From NCBI GenBank assembly GCA_903835075.1, contig CAILLM010000004.1, positions 80,532 through 144,531 on the forward strand: 64,000 bases of DNA, read 5' to 3'. Below, in pieces: positions 1,690 to 61,693 of the stretch. The stretch comes from Candidatus Staskawiczbacteria bacterium. Lineage in GTDB: Bacteria > Patescibacteriota > Minisyncoccia > Minisyncoccales > Staskawiczbacteraceae. The notes beneath the pieces are model-generated. The model saw only the letters and a list, made by a program, of their open reading frames with translations. It ran no database searches and was not told where the DNA came from. Each line of letters begins with the position of its first letter. Positions within the stretch are counted from its first letter, which is position 1. The translations under genes were made by a program, and so were the position numbers.

Positions 1690-4552
1690 TTTGAATAAAT
1701 TAAATAAAGAGCAAAAAGAAGCTGTGTTGCACGACAAGGGTCCGCTTTTAATTGTAGCAGGAGCTGGCACAGGGAAGACAACAGTTATAACCCAGCGCAT
1801 AGTTAATTTAATTGAGCAAAAGCTAGCTAGGCCAGAAGAAATTTTAGCGGTTACTTTCACTGAAAAAGCCGCACTTGAAATGGAAGAAAGGGTTGATAGG
1901 CTTTTAGATTATGGTTATACGGATCTGTGGATTTCAACCTTTCATGCTTTTTGCGAAAAAGTTTTAAGAGAAAATGCGCTAGATATTGGTTTGGCTCCTA
2001 ACTTTAAAATGTTAGATGGAACAGCCTCTTGGCTTTTAGCTAGGCAAAATTTAGATAAGTTTGATTTAAAATATTATAAATCTTTGGGAAATCCTACGAA
2101 GTTTATTCAAGCTTTAATTTCTCATTTTTCTCATTGCAAAGACCAAGAAGTATATCCAGAAAATTATTTAGAATATGCCAACACCCTAAAAACTACTAAT
2201 GACGACATAGAGGGTCAAGAAACAGAAAGAGTCAAAGAGGTCGCAAACGCTTACCGTGTTTACCAGCAAATTTTGTTAGATAACGGCTCTTTAGACTTTG
2301 GAGACTTAATAAACTATTGTTTAAAACTATTCAAAAAACGACCTTTAATTTTAAAAAAATACAGAGAAAAATTTAAATATATTTTAGTTGATGAATTCCA
2401 AGATACTAATTGGGCTCAATATGAATTAATCAAGATATTAGCGGAGCCAGAAAATAATTTAACTGTTTGCGCTGATGATGACCAGGCAATATACAGATGG
2501 CGCGGAGCTTCTTTTTCCAACATCATAAAATTCAAAGAAGATTTTCCCGAGGCTAAACAAATTTCCCTTATAAATAATTATAGGTCTAGCCAAAACATTT
2601 TAGACCAGTCATATAATTTTATAAAACAAAATGATCCAGATAGACTAGAATTTAGAATTAAAATAAATAAAAAATTAGTTGCTAATATTCCAGAAAAAGG
2701 AACTATAAAACATATTCACTGTAAAACTTTGGAGCAGGAAGTTGGACAAGTTGTAAAGAAAATTTTGGAAATTAAAAAAAGCGATAAAAAGATTTCATAC
2801 AGCGAATTTGCAATTTTAGTTAGGGCAAATGATTCAGCAATTCCATTTATTAGAGCCTTAGAGCGTGCACAATTGCCGTATCAATTTTTAGCTTCAAGGG
2901 GTCTTTATTCTAAGCCAGTAGTTTTAGATATAATTTCTTATTTTAAAATATTAGATAATTATCATGAAGGAATTGCAACATACAGAATTTTAAGTTTGCC
3001 ATTTTTAGAAATTGATAATGCAGACATAGCTACAATAACTCAATATAGCCACAAAAAAACAAAGTCTTTATTTGAGTCGCTACAGGAATTAACTCTTATT
3101 GCCGGTATATCTAAAAATACACACGAGAAAGTGGCTTTTCTATTAAGTTTGATACAAAAACATAGCGAAATGGCGAGAGACAAGGGGGTCTCAGAGGTTT
3201 TAGTCAATTTTTTAGTTGACTCAGGATACTTAGAATATATTAAAGATGACCAAGATAAAATAGATTTAGTAAACCAATTTTTAAAGAAAACAAAACAATT
3301 TGAAGATAATAACTTAGAGCCAACCTTGAAGAGCTTTATGGAGCAAATGACCCTTGAAATTGAATCTGGTGAGGAGGGCAAATTGGAATTTGACCCAGAA
3401 CAGGGCCCTGACATGATTAAAGTAATGACAATCCACGGAGCTAAAGGATTAGAGTTTAAATATGTATTTTTAGTAGGCATGGTAGACAGAAGATTTCCAA
3501 CAGACCAAAGAAAAGACCCAATAGAATTACCAGATGCTCTTATTAAAGACATAAAACCAACTGGAGATGTCCACTTGCAGGAAGAAAGAAGGCTTTGTTA
3601 TGTTGCCATGACTAGGGCTAAAAATGGTCTTTACTTTACTTCAGCAGATGATTACGGTGGACAAAGAAAAAAGAAATTATCTAGATTTTTAACAGAAATG
3701 GGATATAAACAAGAAGATTTATCTTCGGTTGCGGAAAGTGAATTATTAAAAGAAAGAAATAAGGTCATAGCAATAAAGCCAAAATATTCTTATGCTATTC
3801 CAGATCATTTTTCTTTTTCTCAATTAGCTATTTATGAAAAATGTCCGTTACAATATAAATTTCAATATATATTAAAAATTCCTCAAAAAGGAAAAGCAGT
3901 TTTTTCTTTTGGAAGTACAGTGCACAACACTTTCCACCAATTTTTAAAACTAGTTAATGAAAATCCCTCCTCCGCCGAGGCTACGGAAGGGTCGCTCAAA
4001 AATTTAAGAGAAATTTATGAGCGAAATTGGATTGATGAATGGTATGAATCTAAAAAACAAAAACAAGATTATAGAAAAAATGGTGAAAGAATAATAAAAA
4101 ATTTTTATGATAATTTTTTAAAAAATCCGCCCAAACTTTTGGAGATTAATGGTTCACTAGCGCTTGAAACTCCTTTTAATTTAAAAATTGGGGAAGACAC
4201 AATTTATGGAAGAATAGATAGAATTGATAATAATGATGGCGAGATTGAAATTATAGATTACAAAACCGGCAAACCCAAAGAAAAGCTAACCCCAGAAGAA
4301 AAGGAGCAACTTTTAATATACCAAATGGCTGCCCAAGAAGTTTTGGATATAAAACCCCACAAGCTTACTTATCATTATTTAGAAGAAGATAAGAAAATTT
4401 CATTTTTGGGGACAGAGCACGAAATAGAAAATTTGAGAGAAAAAATAAAAGGAATAATTAAAAAAATTAAAAATAACGAGTTTGATGCAAAGCCAGGTTT
4501 TAATTGTGAGTATTGCGACTTTAAAGACTTGTGTGATTTTGCCCAAAGATAG
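1679..4552 (+). CDS. UvrD/PcrA/AddA-type superfamily-1 helicase fused to a C-terminal PD-(D/E)xK nuclease with an Fe-S Cys cluster
   Basis: Walker A AGAGTGKT, DEFQDT, YRWRGA, TIHGAKGLEF and VAMTRAK helicase motifs. The C-terminal RecB/AddB-like nuclease has C...CEYCDFKDLC. Confidence 0.9.
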   Translation: MAIDLNKLNKEQKEAVLHDKGPLLIVAGAGTGKTTVITQRIVNLIEQKLARPEEILAVTFTEKAALEMEERVDRLLDYGYTDLWISTFHAFCEKVLRENALDIGLAPNFKMLDGTASWLLARQNLDKFDLKYYKSLGNPTKFIQALISHFSHCKDQEVYPENYLEYANTLKTTNDDIEGQETERVKEVANAYRVYQQILLDNGSLDFGDLINYCLKLFKKRPLILKKYREKFKYILVDEFQDTNWAQYELIKILAEPENNLTVCADDDQAIYRWRGASFSNIIKFKEDFPEAKQISLINNYRSSQNILDQSYNFIKQNDPDRLEFRIKINKKLVANIPEKGTIKHIHCKTLEQEVGQVVKKILEIKKSDKKISYSEFAILVRANDSAIPFIRALERAQLPYQFLASRGLYSKPVVLDIISYFKILDNYHEGIATYRILSLPFLEIDNADIATITQYSHKKTKSLFESLQELTLIAGISKNTHEKVAFLLSLIQKHSEMARDKGVSEVLVNFLVDSGYLEYIKDDQDKIDLVNQFLKKTKQFEDNNLEPTLKSFMEQMTLEIESGEEGKLEFDPEQGPDMIKVMTIHGAKGLEFKYVFLVGMVDRRFPTDQRKDPIELPDALIKDIKPTGDVHLQEERRLCYVAMTRAKNGLYFTSADDYGGQRKKKLSRFLTEMGYKQEDLSSVAESELLKERNKVIAIKPKYSYAIPDHFSFSQLAIYEKCPLQYKFQYILKIPQKGKAVFSFGSTVHNTFHQFLKLVNENPSSAEATEGSLKNLREIYERNWIDEWYESKKQKQDYRKNGERIIKNFYDNFLKNPPKLLEINGSLALETPFNLKIGEDTIYGRIDRIDNNDGEIEIIDYKTGKPKEKLTPEEKEQLLIYQMAAQEVLDIKPHKLTYHYLEEDKKISFLGTEHEIENLREKIKGIIKKIKNNEFDAKPGFNCEYCDFKDLCDFAQR
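3965..3996 (+). repeat. GC-rich hairpin mini-insert, in frame in the helicase gene (encodes PSSAEATEGSL)
   Basis: ccctcctccgccgaggctacggaagggtcgct sits in AT-rich coding DNA. Stems ccct/aggg and tccg/cgga. Shares CCGCC-gAGGCTacGG with the copies at 29101 and 49103. Confidence 0.5.
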
Positions 4553-5738: not shown

Positions 5739-6054
5739 TTTTGATGATTTTAAAAAATTAGACATAAGAATGGGCAAGATTCTCTCGGCTGAAAGAATTG
5801 AAGGGTCTGATAAATTACTAAAATTAGAGGTTGATTTTGGGGAAGACAGGCGTCAAATATTGGCTGGAATAGCCCAATTTTATGCCCCAGAGTCACTTGT
5901 GGGGAAAGAGTGTCCTTTTGCCTATAACCTAGCCCCGCGCGTCATGAAGGGGCTAGAGAGCCAAGGGATGCTTATGTGCCCCTCAGATGAGGCTGGCAGA
6001 CCAGTATTATTACACCCCGATAAAGAGGTGCTTGCGGGTAGTATAATTAAATAG
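5725..6054 (+). CDS. tRNA-binding domain protein (CsaA/Trbp111-like OB fold)
   Basis: FKKLDIRMGKILSAERIEGSDKLLKLEVDFG...RQILAGI...LVGKEC..NLAPRVMKGLESQGMLM matches the EMAP/Trbp111 tRNA-binding domain pattern. Confidence 0.8.
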   Translation: METINFDDFKKLDIRMGKILSAERIEGSDKLLKLEVDFGEDRRQILAGIAQFYAPESLVGKECPFAYNLAPRVMKGLESQGMLMCPSDEAGRPVLLHPDKEVLAGSIIK

Positions 6055-6059
6055 TTAAT

Positions 6060-6899
6060 ATGGTACAAGATAAATACAATGCAGTTTGGGTTTCTCATTC
6101 TTCAATTGGTGACTTTTTAAAGTGTCCAAGGCTTTATTTTTTACATAATGTTTATAAAAATGAACTTGGAAGAAAAATAAATCTAACTAGCCCAGCTCTT
6201 TCTTTGGGAATTGCTGTTCACGAAACAATTGAGGGGTTGTCAAAATATAAAGTTGAGGAAAGATTTTTTAAATCCCTAGAAGAAACATTTGAGGAGGAAT
6301 GGGTAAAAGTTTCTGGTAGAAAAGGTGGTTTTAAAACAGAACAAGAAGAAGCCGAGGCCAAAGAACGTGGCAGAAAAATGGTTTTAAGAGTTGAAAAAAA
6401 CCCAGGGCCACTTGCAAATAAAACAATAAAACTTGCACCTGCTCATAACAATATGCCACCAAATTTCTTTTTGTCTGAAGAAGAAAATATTATTTTAAAT
6501 GGTAAAATTGATTGGATAGAATATGTTCCAGAAGATGATAGTATTAGAGTTATTGATTTTAAAACTGGGAAAAATGAAGAAAAAGCAGATTCTTTACAAC
6601 TTCCAATTTATTTGTTGCTTTTAAATAATCTACAAAAAAGAAAAGTGTCTGGAGCTGCATATTGGTATTTAGATATGGCTGATAAACCAGTTGCAGTTAA
6701 TTTACCAAATGCTGACAAGGCTCACGCACAAGTTTTAGAAATTGCCAGAAGAATTAAAACAGCCAGAGAAAACCAAGAATTTAGTTGTCCAAGGGGGCCA
6801 CAAGGATGTTTCGCCTGTAAGCCATTTGAAAAGATTTTAAAAGGTGAAGCAGAATATATTGGTGTTGGAGGTTATGGCCAAGATATGTATATAATTTAA
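6060..6899 (+). CDS. PD-(D/E)xK nuclease, Cas4/RecB-like, with a four-Cys cluster
   Basis: N-terminal Cys (DFLKCPRLYF), IDWIEY...VIDFKTGK core (D...D/ExK), and C-terminal CPRGPQGCFAC. Confidence 0.65.
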   Translation: MVQDKYNAVWVSHSSIGDFLKCPRLYFLHNVYKNELGRKINLTSPALSLGIAVHETIEGLSKYKVEERFFKSLEETFEEEWVKVSGRKGGFKTEQEEAEAKERGRKMVLRVEKNPGPLANKTIKLAPAHNNMPPNFFLSEEENIILNGKIDWIEYVPEDDSIRVIDFKTGKNEEKADSLQLPIYLLLLNNLQKRKVSGAAYWYLDMADKPVAVNLPNADKAHAQVLEIARRIKTARENQEFSCPRGPQGCFACKPFEKILKGEAEYIGVGGYGQDMYII

Positions 6900-15275: not shown

Positions 15276-15314
15276 AGTCTTTGTTGAAATTATAAAAAGT
15301 GGTAAAATAGAAAT

Positions 15315-21172: not shown

Positions 21173-22669
21173 ATGGACGAAGACCACAAAAATTTTAAAT
21201 GGCTGGTATTGCTGACGGTAGTTATTGGAACTTTTTTAGGTAGGCTAGATCAAACAATTGTTAATTTAGCTTTACCAAAAATAATAACTGATTTTAGAAT
21301 TACTGTTACTTCTGCTAGTTGGATTGCAACCGCGTACATTTTAGCTAACGCGGTTTTTGTTCCTATTTGGGGAAAGCTTGGCGACACCATTGGTAGGAAA
21401 AAAGTTTATATTTGGGGTTTTGGAATTTTTATTTTTGGTTCAGCTTTAGCTGGGTTTGCATGGGATTTAAATTCCATGATTGTTTTTAGAATTATTCAGG
21501 CAATTGCCAGTTCAGCCGACTACCCAACAGCAATGGCAATTTTGGCGGTAACTTTTAGTCACGGGAAAGAAAGGGCGCAGGCACTTGGTTTGTGGTCTGT
21601 ATCGTTTGCAGCAGCTTCTGTTTTTGGGCCATTAATTGGAGGGCCCATGATTGATATTTTTGGCTGGAGGTCTATCTTTTTATTAAACATTCCAATTGGT
21701 ATTGTAGGAATTGTTATGGCTTTAATTTTCATAAGAGAATCTGTCTCAGAGCACAAAACAGTTCATTTTGATTGGTGGGGTGCTATCACCTTGGGATCGG
21801 CACTTTCTTCTTTGGTTTTGGTTTTAGATCAGGGAAGTATTTGGGGTTGGGTTTCGCTTTCTAGCGTAATTTGTTATATTGCCACAATTATTTTTACTAC
21901 AATATTTATACTTATTGAAGCAGGTGCTGACGAACCAATTGTTGATTTAAAGTTTTTCAAAAATAGTGTTTTTGTAAATACTATTGTAAATAATTTTGTT
22001 GTTTTTATGGCTTTAATGGGCGCGGTATTTTTAATCCCTATTTTTTGCCAAACTTATTTGGGTTATGACGCCACAAAAACCGGTTACATATTTATTCCAA
22101 TGGCATTTTTTATGGTAATTTCTTCGGCAATAGGTGGAAGTTTAACCGGGAAGTTAAAACCAAAATATATTATTTTTGCCAGCACACTTATTGCATCCAT
22201 AGGAGTTTTTATGTTTTCATTTTTAGATCCAAGGTCAACAATGTGGAGTGTTATTATCCCGCTTTCTGTTATGGCATTTGGTTTGGGCTTTGGAATGTCG
22301 CAACGTACAAATGTAATTACAGTTGTTGTTCCTGTTGAAGAAATGGGAATGGCTTCTTCGGTTTTAGCACTTGGAAGAAATATTGCCGGTTCATTTGGAA
22401 TTGCTATTTTTGGAACAATTTTAACAGACGCCACAAAAACAAATGTTTTAAATACTGCTTATCATAGTATTATTAATGTCACCAATTCAACGGTTTACCA
22501 AGAGGCAGTACAGTTGATTATTTTAAAATCTCAAATAGATGCTTATAAACCTGTTTTTTGGACAGCTTCAGCAGTTTTATTGGTTGGTGCATTTTTATCT
22601 TTGTTGATAAATGTTTCTAAAGATCAAATGACGCATGGCCATAAGGCAGAGGATTTTGTTGAAATTTAA
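21173..22669 (+). CDS. MFS drug:H+ antiporter, DHA2 (EmrB/QacA) family, about 14 TM helices
   Basis: Motif A GKLGDTIGRKKVY, motif C-like GPLIGGPMID, and about 14 hydrophobic segments. Confidence 0.9.
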   Translation: MDEDHKNFKWLVLLTVVIGTFLGRLDQTIVNLALPKIITDFRITVTSASWIATAYILANAVFVPIWGKLGDTIGRKKVYIWGFGIFIFGSALAGFAWDLNSMIVFRIIQAIASSADYPTAMAILAVTFSHGKERAQALGLWSVSFAAASVFGPLIGGPMIDIFGWRSIFLLNIPIGIVGIVMALIFIRESVSEHKTVHFDWWGAITLGSALSSLVLVLDQGSIWGWVSLSSVICYIATIIFTTIFILIEAGADEPIVDLKFFKNSVFVNTIVNNFVVFMALMGAVFLIPIFCQTYLGYDATKTGYIFIPMAFFMVISSAIGGSLTGKLKPKYIIFASTLIASIGVFMFSFLDPRSTMWSVIIPLSVMAFGLGFGMSQRTNVITVVVPVEEMGMASSVLALGRNIAGSFGIAIFGTILTDATKTNVLNTAYHSIINVTNSTVYQEAVQLIILKSQIDAYKPVFWTASAVLLVGAFLSLLINVSKDQMTHGHKAEDFVEI

Positions 22670-22734
22670 AAAAGGAGTATAATTAAGTTAATATAATTAG
22701 ACGAGTTAGGTGTTCAGCGAAATTTATAGCAGTA

Positions 22735-23052
22735 ATGTATAAATATATCTTGCTAAAATTTCGAAGCAATCGTGTTCGCCTCGCTCACACGACCGTGTTT
22801 TTTGCAATAATATTTATAGCAATAGGTTTAGCATTATTACTTAATTCTTTGGGGTGGTTTGTTGGAATGTGGCAAATTTTTTGGGGAATAATCTTTTTAG
22901 CAGTTGGAATTAGAATGTGCATGAAGCAAGGAGGTTGCCCTATGTGCGAAGGTCATATATGGAAAAATAAAATGGTAGGAAAGATGCATGATCACGGATG
23001 TGATTGTGAGCACGAATGTGAAGAAAAACCACGTGCTAATAAAAAGAAATAA
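22735..23052 (+). CDS. Small two-TM protein with a Cys/His-rich cytoplasmic tail
   Basis: TM helices FFAIIFIAIGLALLL and IFWGIIFLAVGI, then CPMCEGH...HDHGCDCEHECEE. Start codon uncertain. Confidence 0.45.
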   Translation: MYKYILLKFRSNRVRLAHTTVFFAIIFIAIGLALLLNSLGWFVGMWQIFWGIIFLAVGIRMCMKQGGCPMCEGHIWKNKMVGKMHDHGCDCEHECEEKPRANKKK

Positions 23053-23480: not shown

Positions 23481-23507
23481 TTAGCACTCTTGACACGAGA
23501 TTGCTAA
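23481..23507. promoter_or_regulatory. CIRCE operator (HrcA binding site)
   Basis: TTAGCACTC-N9-GATTGCTAA versus the consensus TTAGCACTC-N9-GAGTGCTAA (one mismatch). Confidence 0.85.
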
Positions 23508-23526: not shown

Positions 23527-23931
23527 ATGATTACCGAGAGACAAGAAAAACTTCTAGACTTTCTTATTAGAGAGTATATAAGCACAGCAGAACCTGTGGG
23601 TTCTTTGGCTTTAAAAAAAGTTTGTGATTTAGAGGTTTGTGGAGCAACCATAAGAAACGATTTGCAGGCACTAACAAAAGAAGGTTATATTGAACAGCCA
23701 CATACTTCGGCAGGTAGAATCCCAACAAGAAAAGCCTATAAGCATTTTTCTGAGCAACTTGAGCAGAAAAGACAAAAGGAGTTTGATGATTTCATAGTGC
23801 GACAAGTTCGTTTTGCTCATGAAGAAATGGCCCGTGAGATGCGAAGAATGGAAGAATTAATGCAATCACTTGAACAAGATAATTTTTTTGAAATATTAAT
23901 TACAATAGAACAATGGCACAAGAAGATATAA
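23527..23931 (+). CDS. hrcA: Truncated-format HrcA (N-terminal winged-helix only, 134 aa)
   Basis: ERQEKLLDFLIREYISTAEPVGSLAL......GATIRNDLQALTKEGYIEQPHTSAGRIPT is the HrcA N-terminal DNA-binding domain. The rest is a short charged helix. Confidence 0.7.
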   Translation: MITERQEKLLDFLIREYISTAEPVGSLALKKVCDLEVCGATIRNDLQALTKEGYIEQPHTSAGRIPTRKAYKHFSEQLEQKRQKEFDDFIVRQVRFAHEEMAREMRRMEELMQSLEQDNFFEILITIEQWHKKI

Positions 23932-24398
23932 AAATTGACGAAGTCGAGGAAATAAAAAAACAACTCGAAGAAGCGAAAGTTAAGTGCGAAGAATATTTAA
24001 ACGGTTGGAAGCGTGAGCGTGCAGATTTTTTGAACTACAAAAAAGATGAAATGGAGCGCATTGGCCAGTTAGTAAAATATTCTAATGAGGAGTTAATTTT
24101 AAAAATTATTCCAATTTTAGATAATATCTATTTAGCTGAAGCTCATGTGCCCGAAAAACTGAAAGGTAATGCTTGGATTAACGGCTTTAATTTAATAAAG
24201 AATCAATTGTCTGAATTTTTAACAAAAGAGGGAATTGAACCCATAGAAGTTTTAGGCAAAACTTTTGACGCAAATTTAATGGAAATTATTGGCGAGACCG
24301 AGGGTGACCAACCCAACGTAGTAACAGAAGAAGCCCAACGCGGCTATACAATGAATGAAAAATTAATTAGAGTAGCTAAAGTTAAAATATCTAAATAA
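23913..24398 (+). CDS. grpE: Nucleotide exchange factor GrpE
   Basis: The RERADFLNYKKD helix, ILPILDN, and a C-terminal beta domain (V..E.Q.GY..NEKLIRVAKV). Confidence 0.9.
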   Translation: MAQEDIKIDEVEEIKKQLEEAKVKCEEYLNGWKRERADFLNYKKDEMERIGQLVKYSNEELILKIIPILDNIYLAEAHVPEKLKGNAWINGFNLIKNQLSEFLTKEGIEPIEVLGKTFDANLMEIIGETEGDQPNVVTEEAQRGYTMNEKLIRVAKVKISK

Positions 24399-27225: not shown

Positions 27226-29178
27226 ATGTCAAAAATATTAGGAATTGATTTAGGTACAACTAATTCGGCTATGGCCATTGTAGAAGGTGGTGATGCAAAA
27301 ATAATTGAAAATAAAGAAGGCGCAAGAACTACGCCTTCGATTGTGGCTGTTACAAAATTTGGGGAAAGAACAGTTGGTGTTTTGGCAAAAAGACAAGCTG
27401 TCACAAACCCGCAAAATACAATTTTTTCAGTTAAGAGATTAATTGGAAGAAAATTTTCTGACCCAGAAGTTCAGAAAGATAAAAAAACATTACCTTACGA
27501 GATTAAAGAATCAGCTGACGGTGGAGTCGATGTTAAAATGGGTGACAAATGGTTAAATCCAGCAGAAATTTCAGCAATGATTTTGCAAAAGTTAAAAGCT
27601 GATGCGGAAGCAAAAATTGGTGAAACAATTACAGATGCAATTATAACTTGCCCAGCATATTTTGATGACTCACAAAGAAAAGCTACAAAAATTGCCGGAG
27701 AAATTGCAGGCTTTAATGTAAGAAGAGTTATAAACGAACCAACTGCAGCAGCTTTGGCCTATGGATTAAATAAAAAGAAAGATGAGAAAATTGTAGTTTA
27801 TGACTTTGGTGGTGGAACTTTTGATGTAACAGCAATGGAAATTGTAGCCTCAGAAGGTGAAGATAAAGAGCAACAGGGAAGTATTGAAGTAAAATCAACT
27901 GGTGGTGACACTCACTTGGGTGGAGATGATTTTGACCAAAAAATTATGCATTGGATTGTTGCCGAATTCAAAAAAAATAGTGGAGTTGATCTTTCAAAAG
28001 ACAATTCAGCTTTGCAAAGAATCAAAGAAGCGGCTGAAAAAGCAAAAATTGAATTGTCTAGCAGTATAGAAGCTCAAATTAATTTGCCATTTATCACTTC
28101 AGATCAAGAAGGTCCAAAACACTTGGATTTAAAATTGAAACGCGCTGAGTTTGAAAATATGGTACAGGAAGACATTGATAGATCTATTAGCTTGTTAAAA
28201 CAAACATTGAAGGAATCTGGCTGGGAAGTAAAAGACATTAATGAAATTGTGTTGGTGGGCGGGCAAACAAGAATGCCAAAAATTCAAGAAGAAATTAAAA
28301 AACTTTTTGGCAAAGAACCAAACAAAGAAGTTAACCCCGATGAAGTTGTTGCAATTGGAGCTGCTATTCAGGGTGGAATTATGCAAGGAACAGCTGGAAA
28401 AGATGTTTTATTGCTTGATGTAACTCCATTATCTTTAGGAATTGAAACATTTGGTGGAGTAGATACAATTTTAATTGCAAAAAATACAACTGTGCCAACT
28501 TCAAAAAACCAAACTTTCTCAACAGCTGCTGACAGCCAGCCAAGTGTTGAAATCCATGTTTTGCAGGGTGAGCGTCCAATGGCTGCAGACAATAAAACAT
28601 TAGGTAGGTTTATGCTTGATGGAATTCCGCCAGCACCACGAGGCGTGCCACAAATTGAAGTTTCTTTTGACATTGATGCAAATGGAATTTTAAATGTTTC
28701 AGCAAAAGATAAGGCAACAGGAAAATCACAATCAATTAAAATTGAAGGTTCTTCAGGAATTTCGAAGGACGAAGTTGAAAGAATGAAAAAAGATGCAGAA
28801 ATGCACGCAACTGATGACAAAAAGAAACAAGAAGAAATTGAAGTTAAAAATACTGCAGATGCTTTGGTTTATACTTGTGAAAAAACTCTAAAAGATGCTG
28901 GTGACAAAGTAAAACCAGAAGATAAAAAAGACGTTGAGGACAAAATAACTGCCTTGAAAGAAGCACAAAAGGGTGATAATATGGAAGAAATTAAAGTAAA
29001 AACTAAAGAACTTTCCGAATTAATGCAAAAAGTTGGGGGAGAACTATATAAACAAGAGCAAACCCAAACTAACCCAGATGAAAAAGATATCCCACCCGCC
29101 TCCGCCGAAGGCTCTGGCGAGGCAAAGAAAGAAAATCAGCCAGAAGCTGAAGAAGGGAAGTTTAAAGAAGAGAAATAA
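27226..29178 (+). CDS. dnaK: Chaperone DnaK (Hsp70)
   Basis: [27 protein letters not shown], and the full substrate-binding and lid domains. Confidence 0.98.
29101..29134 (+). repeat. GC-rich hairpin mini-insert, in frame in the dnaK C-terminal tail (encodes [11 protein letters not shown])
   Basis: cccacccgcctccgccgaaggctctggcgaggca. The stem is cctc(c)gcc/ggcgagg with a 9-nt loop. Confidence 0.5.
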
Positions 29179-29315
29179 TAGCGCTCGGGAAATGGTTTTA
29201 CGCTAGCGTTCGTTGCGCCAGCGCGCAACTCACTCAGGCTTCGGCAATTTTTCGCCTTCGGCGAACCATGCAAAATTGCCTGCAGGGTACGCTACAAATC
29301 ATTTCCCTCGCTACA
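29179..29315 (+). other. GC-rich, highly structured intergenic element between dnaK and dnaJ
   Basis: The outer helix pairs tagcg..gggaaatg.ttt (29179-29198) with aaa.catttccc.cgcta (29296-29314). Inner hairpins are gttgcgc-cagc-gcgcaac (29212-29229), and ggcaatttt/aaaattgcc (29243-51/29272-80) enclosing tcgcc-ttc-ggcga. Confidence 0.6.
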
Positions 29316-29322
29316 ATCATTT

Positions 29323-30438
29323 ATGGATTATTACGAACTTCTTGGGGTGCAGAAGACTGCATCTGAGGATGAGATAAAAAAAGCATTTCATAAACTAGCC
29401 CACAAATATCACCCAGATAAAGGTGGTGATGAAAAAAAGTTTAAAGAAATAAACGAGGCCTATCAAGTGCTTTCAGATAAACAAAAAAGAGCTCAGTACG
29501 ATCAGTACGGAAGAGTTTTTGATCAAGGCGCTGGTGATGCAGGGCAAGGTTTTAATTGGGCTTGGGGAAACGGAGCACAAGGCGAAGGCGTTGAATTTGA
29601 TATGGGTGATATTGGCGATGTATTTGAAGAATTTTTTGGAGCAGGTGCTTTTGGTGGAGGAAGACGAGCAACAAAAAAAGATGCTAGAAAAGGAAAAGAT
29701 ATACAAGTTGATATTGAAATTAATTTAGAAAGAACTTTGAAAGAATCTGTTGAAAAAATAAACTTAGCAAAACAAGTTGTTTGTAACAGGTGTGCAGGTG
29801 TAGGGGCTGAGCCAGGCACAAAAGTAAAAGAATGTTTTTCTTGCAGGGGTTCAGGGCAAGTTCAACAAGTTAAGAAAACAATTTTTGGAAGTTTTACTTC
29901 TTTGGGTGTTTGCCCTGAATGTAAGGGTGAGGGAACAATTCCCGAAAAGCCATGTAATGTTTGTAAAGGTGAAGGCCGAACAAAGGGTCAAGAAACAATA
30001 GATGTTACAATTCCCGCAGGCATTGATACTAATCAAGTTATAAGAATTGATGGAAAAGGTGAGGCAGGAAGAAAAGGCGCTAAAGCAGGGAATTTGTTTG
30101 TGCGAATTTTTGTTAAAAAACATAATGTATTTGATAGAAGGGGGGATGACTTGTTTAGTTTTGTAGATATTAATTTTTCACAGGCTGCAATGGGAGATAA
30201 TGTTGAAATGAAAATATTGGATGGGGACCTGCCAACCGGCAGGCAGGCAAACATTTTACTGGAAGTTCCCGCAGGCACGGAAACAGGTAAAGTTTTAAGG
30301 ATTTCTGGGAAGGGAATTCCGCATTTTGGAGGATATGGCAGGGGAAACTTGTATGTTGAATTTAAGGTAAAAACACCTAAAAAATTGTCTAAAAAACAGA
30401 AAGAATTGTTTGAGAGATTGAAAGAAGAAGGATTTTAG
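29323..30438 (+). CDS. dnaJ: Co-chaperone DnaJ (type I)
   Basis: J domain with YHPDK, a Gly-rich linker, and four CxxCxGxG repeats ([32 protein letters not shown]). Confidence 0.96.
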
Positions 30439-30467
30439 TGTAATATGGGTAACATATGCTCCCGTAG

Positions 30468-30539
30468 CTCAATGGTAGAGCAGTAGCCTTTTAAGCTATT
30501 GGTTCCGCGTTCGAGTCGCGGCGGGAGCACATGCGAAAA
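30468..30539 (+). tRNA. tRNA-Lys (anticodon UUU)
   Basis: Hand-folded cloverleaf. Acceptor GCTCCCG/CGGGAGC, D arm GCTC-AATGGTA-GAGC, anticodon loop CT-TTT-AA, T arm CCGCG-TTCGAGT-CGCGG. No encoded CCA. Confidence 0.9.
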
Positions 30540-30545
30540 GCCGTC

Positions 30546-30572
30546 TTAATAGGGCGGTTTTTGTTTGTGTTG
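30546..30572 (+). terminator. Rho-independent terminator after tRNA-Lys
   Basis: aaaagccgtc-ttaatag-ggcggttttt hairpin (one G-U pair) plus T-run. Confidence 0.7.
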
Positions 30573-45372: not shown

Positions 45373-47091
45373 ATGGAACAAGAAACCAAAATTTGTCAGA
45401 ACTGTAAGTCTCCTTTTGTCATAGAGCCTGATGATTTTGATTTCTACGAAAAAATGAAGGTGCCCGCTCCAACATTTTGTCCGCAATGCAGATTACAACG
45501 CAGATTTATGTGGAGGAATGAATGGAAATTGCTTAGAAAAAAAGATATTCATGGAAAAGAAATTTTCTCTATTTTCCATGAAGATTCACCAATCAAAATA
45601 ATGGATGTAGCTGAATGGTACTCTGATTCTTGGGATCCTCTAAGTTATGGCAAAGATTATGATTTTTCTAAACCATTTTTTGAACAATTTAGAGACCTAC
45701 TTCACCAGGTGCCAGCTATGTCTAGGTCCCTTAACAGGCCAGTAAATAGTGATTATTGCGCTAATGCAACTCAGCCAAAAGATTGTTATTTAACATTTGG
45801 TTTGTCATACGTAGAAAACTCAGCATATTCTATTTGGGGAAGTAGGGCTAAAGACATTTTTGATTGTCACATTTACAATGGGTCTGAGCTTTGCTATGAC
45901 AGTGTTAACATTACTAAATGTTACAGAACGTTGTATTCCATAGATTGTGAAGACTGCAATGATATAATGTTTTGCAAAAACTGTGTGGGTTGTAATAATT
46001 GTTTTGGTTGCATTAATTTAAAAAATAAATCTTACTATGTATTTAATCAGGCATATACTAAAGAAGAATATATAAAAAAAATAGAAGAATTGGGAACCAC
46101 TTCAAGAAATAATGTAGAAGAGCTCCGAGAAAAATGTGCAGAAAGTTGGATGAAATATCCAAATAAATTTATTCATGGCAGGCACAATGCAGAAGTTTCA
46201 GGAGATTATATTACTAATTCAAAAAATGCTAAAAATTGTTGGAGAATTGTTGAGGGTGAGAACCTTAAATACTGTCAAAATTTTACATTGGGGCCAGCTA
46301 AAGATTCTTATGACCATAGTAATTTTGGAGACAAAACAGAATTAGTTTATGATTCTCTTGTTGTGGGTGACGGGGCTTATAATATTGCATTTTCTTCGCA
46401 ATGTTACCCATCTAACTCTAATTTGCAGTATTGCTTTTTTTGTCAAAATTCTTCATATTTATTTGGATGTATTAGCTTACGTAATAAACAATACTGTATT
46501 TTCAATAAACAATACACCAAAGAAGAATATGAAGCATTGGTTCCTAAAATTATTGTACACATGAATGAAATGCCTTATGTTGATAAAAAAGGGTTGGTTT
46601 ATAAGTACGGCGAATTTTTCCCAATGGAAATAAGCCCATTAGCTTATAATGAAACTTCTGCTCATGAACATTTTCCATTAACAAAAGAAGAAGTAGAAAA
46701 AATGGGATTAGTTTGGAGAGATGTTTCAGAAAAGAATTTTAACGCAACTATTTTTGGTAATGATTTGCCCGATGACATAAAAAATGTTGACGAAAGTATT
46801 ACAAAAGAAGTTGTAGGTTGTGCCCATGAAGGAAAGTGTAACCATGAATGTGCGGGTGTTTTTAAAATTACTAAACAAGAATTGCAATTTTATAAATTGT
46901 TGAATATCCCATTGCCAAGAATATGTCAAAATTGCAGACATTATGCAAGATTTGCATGGCGTAACCCTGCCAAGCTTTGGCACAGAAGCTGTATGAAGGA
47001 AGGGTGCACCAATGAATTTGAAACTAGTTATTCTCCAGATCGCAAGGAAATAGTATATTGCGAGCAATGTTATCAGGAAGAAGTCGCATAA
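45373..47091 (+). CDS. Cys-rich protein of unknown function with terminal zinc ribbons (paralog A)
   Basis: N-terminal CQNC..F.I...DFDFYEKM.VPAP.FCPQCR and C-terminal F.ITKQELQFYKLLNIPLPRICQNCRH. The core holds about eight ~22-aa Cys-containing units arranged as two half-repeats. Confidence 0.7.
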   Translation: MEQETKICQNCKSPFVIEPDDFDFYEKMKVPAPTFCPQCRLQRRFMWRNEWKLLRKKDIHGKEIFSIFHEDSPIKIMDVAEWYSDSWDPLSYGKDYDFSKPFFEQFRDLLHQVPAMSRSLNRPVNSDYCANATQPKDCYLTFGLSYVENSAYSIWGSRAKDIFDCHIYNGSELCYDSVNITKCYRTLYSIDCEDCNDIMFCKNCVGCNNCFGCINLKNKSYYVFNQAYTKEEYIKKIEELGTTSRNNVEELREKCAESWMKYPNKFIHGRHNAEVSGDYITNSKNAKNCWRIVEGENLKYCQNFTLGPAKDSYDHSNFGDKTELVYDSLVVGDGAYNIAFSSQCYPSNSNLQYCFFCQNSSYLFGCISLRNKQYCIFNKQYTKEEYEALVPKIIVHMNEMPYVDKKGLVYKYGEFFPMEISPLAYNETSAHEHFPLTKEEVEKMGLVWRDVSEKNFNATIFGNDLPDDIKNVDESITKEVVGCAHEGKCNHECAGVFKITKQELQFYKLLNIPLPRICQNCRHYARFAWRNPAKLWHRSCMKEGCTNEFETSYSPDRKEIVYCEQCYQEEVA

Positions 47092-47101
47092 CGTAAGCCA
47101 C

Positions 47102-47154
47102 AACTTTTTTGCCACGTGGCAAAAAAGTTATCAGGTTGCCATATGGTAACCTGA
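47102..47154. repeat. Two adjacent long palindromes between the tandem paralogs
   Basis: aacttttttgccac|gtggcaaaaaagtt (47102-47129) is a perfect 14+14 palindrome with a CACGTG centre. tcaggttgccat|atggtaacctga (47131-47154) is 12+12 with one mismatch. Confidence 0.85.
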
Positions 47155-47170
47155 AGAAAATGAAATTTTT

Positions 47171-48892
47171 ATGAATCAAGAAACAAAACAATGTCAGAAT
47201 TGTAAACAAGGCTTTGTAATTGAGCTAGAAGATTTTGATTTTTATGAAAAAATGACGGTACCTGCTCCAACATGGTGTCCGTCTTGTAGAGCTAAACGGA
47301 GGTTGGCGGCGAGAGATTTTCGTGTGCTATATAAAAGAAAGAGCGACTGGTCGGGTAATGAGATTTTTTCTATTTTTTCTGAGGAATCACCTTACAAGGT
47401 CTATGAGGTGGAGGTGTGGCAATCAGACAAGTGGGATCCTATGGAATATGGACAAGAATATGATTTTAAAAAAACATTTTTTGAACAATATAGGGAATTG
47501 ACGCTTAAAGTCCCTCAGCCAAGCACAACAAATTGGGATTCAGTGAATAGCGATTATTGCACCGGTGCGGCTGGGCTTAAAAATTGTTATCTTACTTTTG
47601 TAGCCACGCACAATGAGGATTGTATGTATTGTGCGCTAATTAATGATACTAAAAATTCAATTGACACTACGCGAACAGAGTCTTCAGAATTTTGTTATGA
47701 ATCGTTTGGCGTTATTAAGTCATCTAAGGTTTTTTTCTCTTCTGATTGTGAGGAATGTGTTGATGTTTGGTTTTCAAAAAATCTTCAAGGATGCATGAAT
47801 TGCATTGGTTGTGTAAACTTACGAAATAAGCAATATTATATTTTTAATCAATCTTATTCTAAAGAGGAATATAAAAAGAAATTTCTGGAGTTTGATTTCG
47901 GTTCAGTCAAAAATTTAGAAAATTTTAAAACAAAAACTGAAGAATTATTTGCTAAAAATATTGTTCGATATGCGCACGGAAAGCATAATTTTAATGTCTC
48001 GGGAGAATATATTAATAATTCTAAAAATGTTCGTAATTCTTTTTATGTTAATAACGGCGAAGATTGCAAATATGTTCAATATTTATTTACTCCTTCGAGT
48101 AAAGATTGTATGGATTTCTCTCTTTGGGGCGATAACGCCGAACTTATTTATGAGGTATCAAGTTGCGGAGAAAATTCTTCACAAATTAAGTTAAGTTATA
48201 GAACATATCGTGGTTCTCATAATTGTACGTATTGTATGCAGTGCGCATCGTCGTCATATCTTTTCGGTTGCGTTGGTTTGCAAAAAAAGCAATATTGTAT
48301 TTTTAACAAACAATATACCAAAGAAGAATATGAAGCCTTGGTGCCTAAAATCATTGAGCATATGGATGAAATGCCTTATGTTGATAAAAAAGGAAGAGTC
48401 TATAAATATGGCGAATTTTTTCCACCCGAGCATTCTCTTTTTTCTTATAATGAAACACTGGTTTTCAGCGATTTTCCAATGACAAAAGAAGAAGCGTTGT
48501 CAGAGGGATATACATGGAAAGAGCCAGATCAAAAAAAATATAAAATTACAATTGAATCTAAATTAATTCCAGATCATATCAAAGATGTAGGGGACGAAAT
48601 CATTAGTGAAACAGTTGAATGTGCACATAAAGGGCAGTGCCATTGTAAATGCACAAGTGCTTTTAAAATAACAAAACAAGAACTTGATTTTTATAGAGCA
48701 AATAATATTCCTATACCAAGATTGTGCCATAATTGTAGGCACGTGTTGCGTGTAAAAAATCAAAGCCCAATGAAATTGTGGCACAGGCATTGTATGAAAG
48801 ATGGGTGTAATAATGAATTTGAGACTAGTTATTCCCCAGACCGTAAAGAAATAGTTTATTGCGAAAGTTGTTACAATAACGAAGTTGCATAA
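47171..48892 (+). CDS. Cys-rich protein of unknown function with terminal zinc ribbons (paralog B)
   Basis: Collinear with 45373..47091 over its full length. The block KQYCIFNKQYTKEEYEALVPKII.HM.EMPYVDKKG.VYKYGEFFP and the tail FETSYSPDRKEIVYCE.CY are near-identical. Confidence 0.7.
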   Translation: MNQETKQCQNCKQGFVIELEDFDFYEKMTVPAPTWCPSCRAKRRLAARDFRVLYKRKSDWSGNEIFSIFSEESPYKVYEVEVWQSDKWDPMEYGQEYDFKKTFFEQYRELTLKVPQPSTTNWDSVNSDYCTGAAGLKNCYLTFVATHNEDCMYCALINDTKNSIDTTRTESSEFCYESFGVIKSSKVFFSSDCEECVDVWFSKNLQGCMNCIGCVNLRNKQYYIFNQSYSKEEYKKKFLEFDFGSVKNLENFKTKTEELFAKNIVRYAHGKHNFNVSGEYINNSKNVRNSFYVNNGEDCKYVQYLFTPSSKDCMDFSLWGDNAELIYEVSSCGENSSQIKLSYRTYRGSHNCTYCMQCASSSYLFGCVGLQKKQYCIFNKQYTKEEYEALVPKIIEHMDEMPYVDKKGRVYKYGEFFPPEHSLFSYNETLVFSDFPMTKEEALSEGYTWKEPDQKKYKITIESKLIPDHIKDVGDEIISETVECAHKGQCHCKCTSAFKITKQELDFYRANNIPIPRLCHNCRHVLRVKNQSPMKLWHRHCMKDGCNNEFETSYSPDRKEIVYCESCYNNEVA

Positions 48893-61494: not shown

Positions 61495-61596
61495 CGATCG
61501 TACAGATTTAGGATTTTTTCATATTTGTGATATAATAATTTAACAATTTAATAATTCGCCTAAACTCATATATTTCTATGGGCATGGCACTAAAGT

Positions 61597-61693
61597 CTAA
61601 ACAAGCATAAAGATCCCATCATGGGGTTGCTTGTTTAGCCATATCGGGAAACTGGTATGAGAGGTTTCGGCCTCTACCCGTGGTGGGTTTTTT
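61597..61693 (+). ncRNA. Candidate structured leader / small RNA upstream of the zinc-ribbon gene
   Basis: Perfect 11-bp stem ctaaacaagca/tgcttgtttag (61597-61638) with a nested ccca-tca-tggg. Then agagg-tttcgg-cctct (61660-61675), then accc-gtggt-gggt plus T6 (61676-61693). An extended -10 TGaTATAAT lies at 61528-61536. Confidence 0.3.

Follow-up and report, generated by a model that had tools for sequence, protein, structure and literature searches.

What does a GC-rich spacer do between the chaperone genes dnaK and dnaJ in a genome that is otherwise poor in G and C? The question arises from a 64,000-nt stretch of DNA (the window) from Candidatus Staskawiczbacteria, about a tenth of the genome, which the relatives of its DnaJ assign to this group within the Parcubacteria of the candidate phyla radiation (CPR). 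The dnaK stop codon (TAA, 29176-29178) and the dnaJ ATG at 29323 are separated by 144 nt (29179-29322) with a GC content of 51-57%, against 35% for the whole window, and a first-pass annotation had rightly described this spacer as GC-rich and compositionally foreign. It had also proposed, as one possibility, that the spacer forms an RNA element that sets the dnaK:dnaJ ratio. The analysis reported here confirmed that the spacer holds a real folded element, preserved in relatives and called E below. The preferred reading of its role, held tentatively, is that E is a cis-acting mRNA structure, similar to the repetitive extragenic palindromic (REP) elements, that holds DnaJ below DnaK. CPR bacteria are uncultured and have minimal genomes, and E offers a way to study how they tune output within their operons. 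The spacer is not an assembly artefact, because it is identical in the four other same-species assemblies that include it. The two genes and the parts of E are as follows.

27226-29178, + strand: dnaK, encoding a 650-aa Hsp70 (Pfam).
29179-29313, + strand: E, a closed multi-helix fold with a clamp (P1), a tandem-mismatch loop, a 12-bp helix (P2) and a three-way junction (P3, P4 and P5-P6-P7), as given by RNAfold; covariance model R1 scores it at 62.5 bits.
29179-29198, + strand: 5' strand of E, defined by complementarity (P1 29179-29183, loop CTC 29184-29186, P2 29187-29198).
29182-29188, + strand: conserved 5' block CGCTCGG, from comparison of family members.
29202-29209, + strand: 5' strand of P3, G..TAGCGT, which pairs with ACGCTA-C at 29289-29295 in the minimum free energy (MFE) fold and is identical in L200 (L-numbers denote the related loci or lineages compared with the window).
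29212-29229, + strand: P4 hairpin, GTTGCGC-CAGC-GCGCAAC, containing the CCAGCG block at 29218-29223.
29232-29288, + strand: P5-P6-P7 domain, in which P5 is ACTC/GGGT plus GC/GC.
29296-29313, + strand: 3' strand of E (P2 29296-29307, loop T 29308, P1 29309-29313), at -27 to -10 from the dnaJ AUG.
29306-29312, + strand: conserved 3' block CCTCGCT, 10 nt before the dnaJ AUG.
29323-30438, + strand: dnaJ, encoding a full-length DnaJ of 371 aa.

E begins at the base after the dnaK stop, and its first bases, TAG, form a second in-frame stop codon. P1 consists of 5 bp (TAGCG at 29179-29183 with CGCTA at 29309-29313) and P2 of 12 bp, including one G.U pair (GGGAAATGGTTT at 29187-29198 with AAATCATTTCCC at 29296-29307). 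Within the interior, the 9-bp P6 (GGCAATTTT at 29243-29251 with AAAATTGCC at 29272-29280) carries P7 (TCGCC-TTC-GGCGA, 29252-29264, with arms 29252-29256 and 29260-29264 around a UUC loop), and the same domain contains a 7-nt bulge, ACCATGC, at 29265-29271 and the sequence GCCTGC at 29278-29283. All of the helices listed in the first-pass annotation were present in the sequence and its closed fold was recovered by RNAfold, which added the short helices P3 and P5 that make the interior a three-way junction. The extent originally proposed, 29179-29315, was correct at its start; the paired region ends at 29313, 9 nt before the dnaJ AUG, and not at 29315.

The + strand fold had a predicted MFE of -56.6 kcal/mol, compared with -36.9 +/- 3.6 kcal/mol in 200 dinucleotide shuffles, none of which reached the observed value (z = -5.56). 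The z-score of the - strand fold was -3.9. Covariance model R1, which was built on the ends and the outer helix shared by the E family (with a copy from L009 among the training sequences), scored the + strand at 62.5 bits and the - strand at 9.5 bits. The 9-bp P6 has a probability of only ~0.33 in the thermodynamic ensemble, and is supported by covariation in homologues.

That covariation was examined at several levels. In a structure-blind MAFFT alignment, 86.5% of the outer-helix cells were paired, against 73.6% in shuffles (0 of 500 reached the observed value), and both sides had changed in eight of the 14 pairs, with slid controls at 35-63%. In the 11 model-aligned sequences, 90.7% of the outer-helix cells were paired. 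The long forms of the element (the window, L149, L140 and L049) share the order of P2, P4, P6 and P7, each with helix sequences of its own; DnaJ identity between the two long-form clades is only ~60%. Their common topology was recovered by independent MFE folds. The helices of the long forms were checked by explicit complementarity, as RNAalifold on the four-sequence MAFFT alignment mis-registered the interior helices; 23 of the 24 helix segments were fully complementary, the exception being P4 of L140 with a single C.A mismatch. The closest carrier, L200, has a DnaJ that is 87% identical to that of the window. Across P3-P7, 30 of its pairs are identical to those of the window, four are compensated (three in P4 and one in P6) and none is broken, and its P2 has been rewritten (GGTAGTGA/TCACTACC) with complementarity retained.

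Conservation in the unpaired regions is of a different kind. Four blocks are fixed in sequence and position across the long forms: CGCTCGG, CCAGCG in the P4 loop, ACCRTGC in the bulge after P7, and CCTCGCT. CCAGCG is retained in L149, L140 and L049 while the P4 that carries it is rewritten; CCAGCG and ACCRTGC are missing from the short forms. Such unpaired blocks would imply a sequence-specific partner or a tertiary contact. Homologues at the same position with compensatory changes, the generic mark of a structured cis-regulatory RNA, were found together with stability in excess of shuffled controls, so that none of the grounds on which the first-pass annotation would have abandoned its element applied. 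The part of its proposal that concerned a conserved cis-acting structure is upheld by the homologues, the covariation and the constant position, while the part that made the structure a thermosensor is not; that E sets the dnaK:dnaJ ratio is a proposal taken up below.

The dnaK-dnaJ junction was compared across 80 genome loci, 80 metagenome loci and 11 more found via DnaJ homologues, and proved to be hypervariable: among 129 distinct junctions, 51 are of 30 nt or less, 66 of 31-260 nt and 12 longer. A subset has ends like those of the window, 5' (C)GCTCGG-stem ... stem-CCTCGCT 3'. In a search that covered the whole window and ~1.06 Mb of related DNA, R1 matched on the gene strand at E-values of 4e-7 or below in 11 lineages (the window, L003, L008, L049, L086, L095, L105, L140, L149, L200 and L209), and in all 11 the family occurred in the dnaK-dnaJ spacer only. 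Recognisable variants below the R1 threshold are found in L091, L093, L208 and L202. The L009 copy used in training is in reverse orientation and scores 46 bits, and it can also be read as a truncated form of a second element, E2 (introduced below); 11 of 12 copies are thus on the gene strand and one is reversed. In the DnaJ tree, carriers are interleaved with non-carriers and three of the long forms fall in a distant clade. In L049, L140 and L149, a conserved tail of ATTCGTA repeats (TATTCGTATATTCGTAAAAATTCGTAATTCGTAGGGTT, ~50 nt) lies between the long-form E and dnaJ.

Within the family, the 5' end of E lies 0-6 nt from the dnaK stop and the 3' end 6-56 nt from the dnaJ start. The fixed 5' end and variable 3' end suggest a function linked to where dnaK ends, for example that of a 3' barrier or processing site. 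Closed structures at this position are not confined to the E family. Of 61 distinct spacers with lengths of 40-260 nt, 48 (79%) have a widest helix that covers at least 70% of their length, against 37 of 108 other tandem intergenic regions (Fisher p = 3e-8, not corrected for phylogeny); the median start of this helix is 4 nt past the stop and its median end 11 nt before the start, and a T-rich tail is present in six of the 61. Spacer-spanning rods of this kind fit a functional need for a closed rod, and equally the insertion of hairpins into a short spacer. The spacers of L001, L006, L012, L013, L015, L021, L040, L082, L088, L099 and L206 are single long rods, and rod arms are made of short tandem repeats (for example GTAGTGA / CCAACTAC, ATTCGTA, or TTTAGGG-like) whose sequences are unrelated between lineages. 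The junction therefore offers a natural variant series at one site: no spacer, simple rods, short form, long form and nested form.

How might such a structure act? GGAG or GAGG was found at -18..-4 in 0 of 57 window genes, and the host therefore does not use Shine-Dalgarno (SD) sequences; the leaders of window genes are almost pure A/T. No terminator-like or promoter-like site was found by scanning the gene strand of the spacer, from which transcription through E is inferred. E would form in the polycistronic heat-shock mRNA, essentially strand-specifically, and act in cis. Without SD sequences the host would rely on open, AU-rich leaders, and a rod that closes -27 to -10 of the dnaJ ribosome landing zone would make for poor loading of free ribosomes. 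A ribosome finishing dnaK would unwind the 5' strand of E, freeing the 3' strand and allowing initiation at dnaJ (structure-gated coupling). E probably also acts as a 3' barrier and so lends stability to the dnaK part of the mRNA, as REP elements do, because it is very stable, lies right after the stop codon and has no U-tract.

Modelled ribosome access is consistent with such a mechanism in this genome. The cost of opening -20..-6 of dnaJ was 18.4 kcal/mol, the highest of 55 genes (median 5.3), and that of opening -18..+12 was 19.8 kcal/mol, ranking second behind a gene with a LOOT RNA leader. With 29164-29191 held single-stranded, to mimic a ribosome positioned at the end of dnaK, the cost for -20..-6 decreased to 4.3 kcal/mol, below the window median, and this modelled decrease supports structure-gated coupling in this genome. 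The drop on gating was 13.6 kcal/mol in the window and 12.4 in L091 in the comparison of family members, and 4-6 in L003, L008 and L105. Across the junctions the effect was modest: opening cost a median of 9.9 kcal/mol, compared with 6.4 in controls, and 23% of junctions, against 6%, showed a drop of 4 kcal/mol or more. The effects of E on translation and on mRNA stability are inferred, and structure-gated coupling with a 3' barrier is a proposal that can be tested in vitro.

Several observations weigh against E as a cis-acting regulator. By mean unpaired probability, the dnaJ initiation region is unexceptional, at rank 35 of 55, and its AUG is 87% unpaired, although opening energy, and not mean unpaired probability, is the informative measure of access. 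The gating drop is ~0 in L086, L095, L149 and L049, where E ends 17-56 nt from the start; gating as a property of the whole family was rejected, since it is not conserved among members. The 51 junctions of 30 nt or less, together with the sister lineages L001, L199 and L201 that lack E, indicate that the element is dispensable. Stable folding is also common elsewhere, with z < -3 in 39% of other tandem intergenic regions against 63% at the dnaK-dnaJ junction. Finally, compensated changes in a DNA palindrome can arise by template-switch correction, without selection on RNA.

This last point leads to the first alternative, that E is selfish or neutral palindromic DNA with no regulatory role: cassettes would insert, or duplicate in nested fashion, at the junction, giving a self-folding insert that the operon tolerates and whose arms are kept complementary by quasi-palindrome (template-switch) correction. 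Nested shells are visible in L200, whose long form lies inside a complete short form (GCTCGG-CAATAATTT...AAATTTATTG-TTCGCT), and the helix bases are self-similar, with YTCGG...CCTSGC repeated at each. The helix-base motif is 5'-GC UC GG ... CC UC GC-3', a tandem U.C/C.U mismatch between G-C pairs, and weaker copies of it flank P4 and P6; the resulting CTCG on both sides of each helix is indistinguishable from a structural motif. Hairpins of ~50 nt with the base CGCTCGGG...CCCTCGCG occur at other loci on both strands (two copies in L109, and L020 and L076), the L009 copy is reversed (46 bits, in a copy used to build R1), the phylogenetic distribution is patchy and many junctions have no spacer at all. 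The unrelated tandem-repeat rods of the relatives, 79% of which span at least 70% of the spacer, are as expected of insertion into a short spacer, and one arm motif, GTAGTGA, is common to E-type and sister rods (L001, L206, L200 and L202).

Other properties of E speak against an element that is only palindromic. It is single-copy in the 64 kb even with the model filters off, neither its long nor its short form was found away from this one junction in the ~1.06 Mb, and 11 of its 12 copies are on the gene strand. No transposase or target-site duplication was identified, with no screen aimed at RAYT/Y1 transposases made. The unpaired blocks are identical while the helices are almost fully rewritten, and only two of 33 unpaired bases differ between the window and L200 (one an A>G change in the bulge). 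Fixed unpaired blocks amid rewritten helices therefore indicate purifying selection on sequence and not only on palindromy. That E is selfish or neutral DNA with no regulatory role is considered less likely than the preferred reading, of which it is the main rival. The palindromic origin and the mRNA function are not mutually exclusive: E probably originated from nested REP-like palindromic cassettes, and such an element may have been recruited. E would then show how palindromic cassettes may build up and possibly enter mRNA function, and if it is only a tolerated palindrome it is still a clean case of rapid hairpin turnover at a fixed site. As a separate observation, a dispersed GC-rich hairpin of ~50 nt, CGCTCGGGCGCGGCGGAA...TTCCGCCGCGCCCTCGCGGG, with an E-like CTCG/CTCG mismatch base, is located in L109 at 4210-4258 (+) and 5849-5898 (-), in L020 at 2911-2959 and in L076 at 6406-6464 (-).

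The relationship of E to described RNA families and repeats was sought by several routes. A scan of the whole window against Rfam 15 at the gathering threshold returned only LOOT and two tRNAs, with no family match in the spacer, and a permissive scan of 29050-29450 (E-value <= 10) gave only chance matches, two in number and both on the strand opposite to the genes (E = 2.1 and 7.4). ARAGORN found no tRNA or tmRNA in the spacer, and neither of its two small open reading frames (ORFs) matched Pfam. The blastn search for further copies that the first-pass annotation had recommended gave none in the 64-kb window, and neither did a direct-repeat search or an unfiltered covariance-model search. No described CPR dnaK-dnaJ RNA motif was found in a literature search, and neither gene is mentioned in the main text of a paper on 224 candidate RNA motifs. 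E adds a covariation-supported, RNA-type structure from outside Rfam. Among specific candidates, an integron attC site was rejected because the ends are TAGCGCTCGG ... CCTCGCTA and not RYYYAAC ... GTTRRRY, and CIRCE, kink-turn and tRNA-like readings of E were rejected because the defining sequences or shapes are absent. An intrinsic terminator or attenuator was rejected because the E hairpin has no U-tract (its tail is CAATCATTT), and an internal dnaJ promoter in the spacer because its geometry is not conserved and there is no -35 element.

REP elements and the bacterial interspersed mosaic elements they build (for example at malE-malF) are GC-rich imperfect palindromes in intra-operon spacers that lack a U-tract and stabilise the upstream cistron, resulting in unequal expression. 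Each is a simple hairpin of ~35-40 nt, and they occur by the hundred as nearly identical copies, which can be nested or clustered and lie in either orientation. E resembles them in being GC-rich, palindromic, within an operon and without a U-tract, and units with the same base are dispersed in related genomes. It differs in being a 135-nt three-way junction with conserved unpaired blocks, single-copy in 64 kb and restricted to one junction. The many dispersed copies that characterise REPs and miniature inverted-repeat transposable elements were found neither in the window, about a tenth of the genome, nor in the ~1.06 Mb; as to orientation and nesting, there are 11 gene-strand copies and one reversed (L009), nesting in L200, and smaller units on both strands in L109. 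In the MS2 coat-replicase system, long-range pairing closes the downstream initiation region and translating ribosomes open it. The modelled change in the opening cost of E with an upstream ribosome (18.4 to 4.3 kcal/mol) is similar, but the 5' partner in E lies just past the stop codon and not within the upstream ORF, and the effect is not conserved in the family.

Closer parallels by position exist in the dnaK operons of cultured bacteria. In E. coli, the dnaK-dnaJ message is present mainly as dnaK-only RNA, dnaJ is increased in an RNase III mutant, and the spacer holds the putative tpke11 RNA (PMC3082872). E is likewise a structured dnaK-dnaJ spacer on the gene strand, although position alone is insufficient for membership; it has no Rfam match, is unrelated in sequence, size and architecture, and belongs to an SD-less CPR host. 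For the B. subtilis dnaK operon, a passage in PMC5727486 that cites Homuth 1997 and 1999 describes stem-loops 5' of dnaJ and differential segmental mRNA stability that adjust protein ratios. The B. subtilis and Clostridium operons are of the same type as that of the window, with CIRCE, an hrcA-like gene, grpE, dnaK and dnaJ; theirs have rho-independent terminators and a vegetative promoter before dnaJ, whereas E has neither a U-tract nor a promoter-like site. The remaining features of the window operon are as follows.

23481-23507, + strand: CIRCE operator, TTAGCACTC-N9-GAGATTGCTAA, with one mismatch (0 expected by chance).
23527-23931, + strand: 134-aa ORF with a weak match to the HrcA-type winged helix.
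23913-24398, + strand: grpE, after the hrcA-like 134-aa ORF.
30458-30530, + strand: tRNA-Lys(UUU), directly 3' of dnaJ and co-oriented.
30536-30562, + strand: terminator-like hairpin with a T-run, from a scan for terminator-like sites; probably the end of the transcription unit.

The CIRCE site is the sole window match to the consensus TTAGCACTC-N9-GAGTGCTAA and lies 5' of the hrcA-like gene, outside E. The order is CIRCE, hrcA-like ORF, grpE, several small genes, dnaK, E, dnaJ, tRNA-Lys and the terminator-like site, and by this predicted arrangement the operon is a Gram-positive-type CIRCE/HrcA heat-shock operon. The 134-aa ORF right after CIRCE, with its weak HrcA match, would be a miniature HrcA in a CPR genome. 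E would work most like the E. coli, B. subtilis and REP systems but is a member of none of them, because it has no Rfam match, no U-tract and no multiple copies in the sequence available, and because its fold is larger and branched, with conserved unpaired blocks.

A second alternative takes those unpaired blocks as its starting point. E may serve to dock a specific factor that acts in trans, be it a protein, an RNase or another RNA, or may sense a ligand, and may form a post-transcriptional layer of chaperone control together with a second conserved structured leader in the window.

22700-22794, + strand: E2, which ends in GCCTCGCTCACACGACC, with an in-frame GTG directly after it at 22795.

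E2 follows a promoter-like 29-mer, and the GTG at 22795 starts an 85-aa LiaF-TM-like protein whose gene is the head of a gene cluster upstream of the CIRCE operon. Its terminal GCCTCGCTCACAAGACC adjoins the GTG start. Copies elsewhere lie at ~1900-2008 in L009, ~790-890 in L099, 2899-3000 in L084 and 2864-3000 in L094, and the E2 consensus comprises helices of 9 bp and 12 bp, the latter with five compensated pairs, and a mini-hairpin of 4 bp that contains the start codon (CAC...GUG). E2 belongs to no Rfam family. Scans of viral contigs for the E core and the 3' end of E2 gave chance matches in coding regions only, mostly in higher-GC phages.

In favour of docking are the conserved unpaired blocks within the three-way junction of E. 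E2 has two motifs in common with E: YCAGCG, which in E2 is located in an internal loop, and GCCTCGCT, at a distance of 9 nt from the start codon. The window contains just two copies of CCTCGCT, each 9-10 nt before a start codon, one in the dnaK-dnaJ spacer and the other in the E2 leader, within the cluster just upstream of the operon. Genes whose GTG start follows E2 are dnaK (L009 and L099), dnaJ (L084 and L094) and, in the window, the gene that heads the upstream unit. In L149 and L140, the P4 loop contains AGCGAG, the complement of the 3' CUCGCU. This likeness of E and E2, seen at the sequence level, hints at a common partner, but it is based on two short motifs, no candidate partner was identified, CCAGCG and ACCRTGC are missing from the short forms and the E family is absent from most relatives. 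Docking is therefore regarded as improbable. A reading in which E and E2 are variants of one CPR-specific system that controls chaperone genes after transcription in SD-less bacteria, atop CIRCE/HrcA, is given a similarly small chance; if true, a common factor or tertiary fold would read CCUCGCU and YCAGCG, setting chaperone stoichiometry or stress-dependent translation.

The first-pass annotation had also raised the possibility of a thermosensor, in which melting of E on heat shock would release dnaJ translation. The location within a heat-shock operon, the mismatch loop at the helix base near the start codon and the 3-4-bp hairpins that are possible around the AUG (AAUC...GAUU in the window) and the E2 GUG are compatible with this, and E shares with ROSE and fourU thermometers the character of a cis-acting, mismatch-bearing hairpin in the leader of a heat-shock gene. 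Those thermometers, however, mask the SD sequence or AUG and melt at 30-42 C, and E does neither in silico. Between 10 and 60 C the predicted pair probability decreased only from 0.99 to 0.92 for P1 and from 1.00 to 0.95 for P2, so that both remained more than 90% paired, and at 80 C the paired fraction was still 65-77%. The AUG is separated from the fold by 9 nt and is 85-89% unpaired at 10-40 C, there is no SD sequence in this host to mask, Rfam gave no match to ROSE, fourU or another thermometer, and the distance from E to the start is not conserved (6-56 nt). A thermometer is thus very unlikely here; E2 is a better candidate for one than E.

No more credible is the suggestion, made in the same annotation, that small 'ccttcgg' hairpins inserted in frame in genes form a genome-wide family, with E as its compound or full-length version. 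Rickettsia palindromic elements offer a comparison: in a reduced, AT-rich genome, they are inserted in spacers and also, with the reading frame kept, within genes. The window does contain a single GC-rich hairpin that is in frame, located in the disordered tail of DnaK and patchily distributed among relatives; it may be comparable to those elements, which differ in that no repeated family was detected in the window. CCTTCGG occurs four times against 2.1 expected and is not enriched, no second copy or fragment of E is present in the window, and E has no alignable similarity to the DnaK-tail hairpin. GCYTCGGC is weakly enriched, with its other three matches intragenic, and both motifs were rejected as a family signal on these grounds; the hexamer CGCTCG occurs once. 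The DnaK-tail hairpin itself (GCCTCCGCCGAAGGCTCTGGCGAGGC, 29099-29124, + strand) encodes 'ASAEGSGE' and is present in some relatives (L001, L082, L084, L086 and L105) and absent from others.

The weakest alternative, that the AUG or GUG in the ACCRUGC bulge starts a small upstream ORF controlling dnaJ, can be set aside: the window, L149 and L140 have AUG at this position, where L049 and L200 have GUG, and L086 has an ORF that runs from an internal GTG into the dnaJ start, with which it overlaps at ATGA, but the ORFs run from 9 to 32 codons with differing frames and stops, their peptides are not conserved and the spacer ORFs have no Pfam match.

Further features of the region and its relatives were recorded. 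The promoter-like motif upstream of E2, TTTGTTGAAATT..AAAAAG.GGTA.AAT (29 nt), occurs at 2762-2790, 15280-15308 and 22655-22683, two of the copies lying 5' of a gene for an FKBP-type peptidyl-prolyl isomerase and of E2. The LOOT RNA (RF03000, 85 bits) at 61557-61675 (+) abuts the GTG at 61680 of a 255-aa gene, and the initiation region of this gene has the highest opening cost in the window (26.6 kcal/mol). Downstream of dnaJ in L073 ((-), ~5220), L145 ((-), ~4551) and L160 ((-), ~2825) is a conserved GC-rich stretch, GGGGAACCCCGAAGCAATCCCTCGCTTTCGCTCGGGATGCTACGGGGCAAG, which may be an RNA gene. A perfect palindrome, CAGGTTGCCATATGGTAACCTG, is located at 47132-47153 and variants such as GGTTGTCATATGACAACC recur intergenically; it may be an operator, and sites of this type are also found in intergenic regions 5' of the dnaK cluster in L003, L007, L008 and L021. 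The window palindrome lies between 45373-47091 and 47171-48892, tandem paralogous genes of ~572 aa with internal repeats of ~74 nt (families D1-D4).

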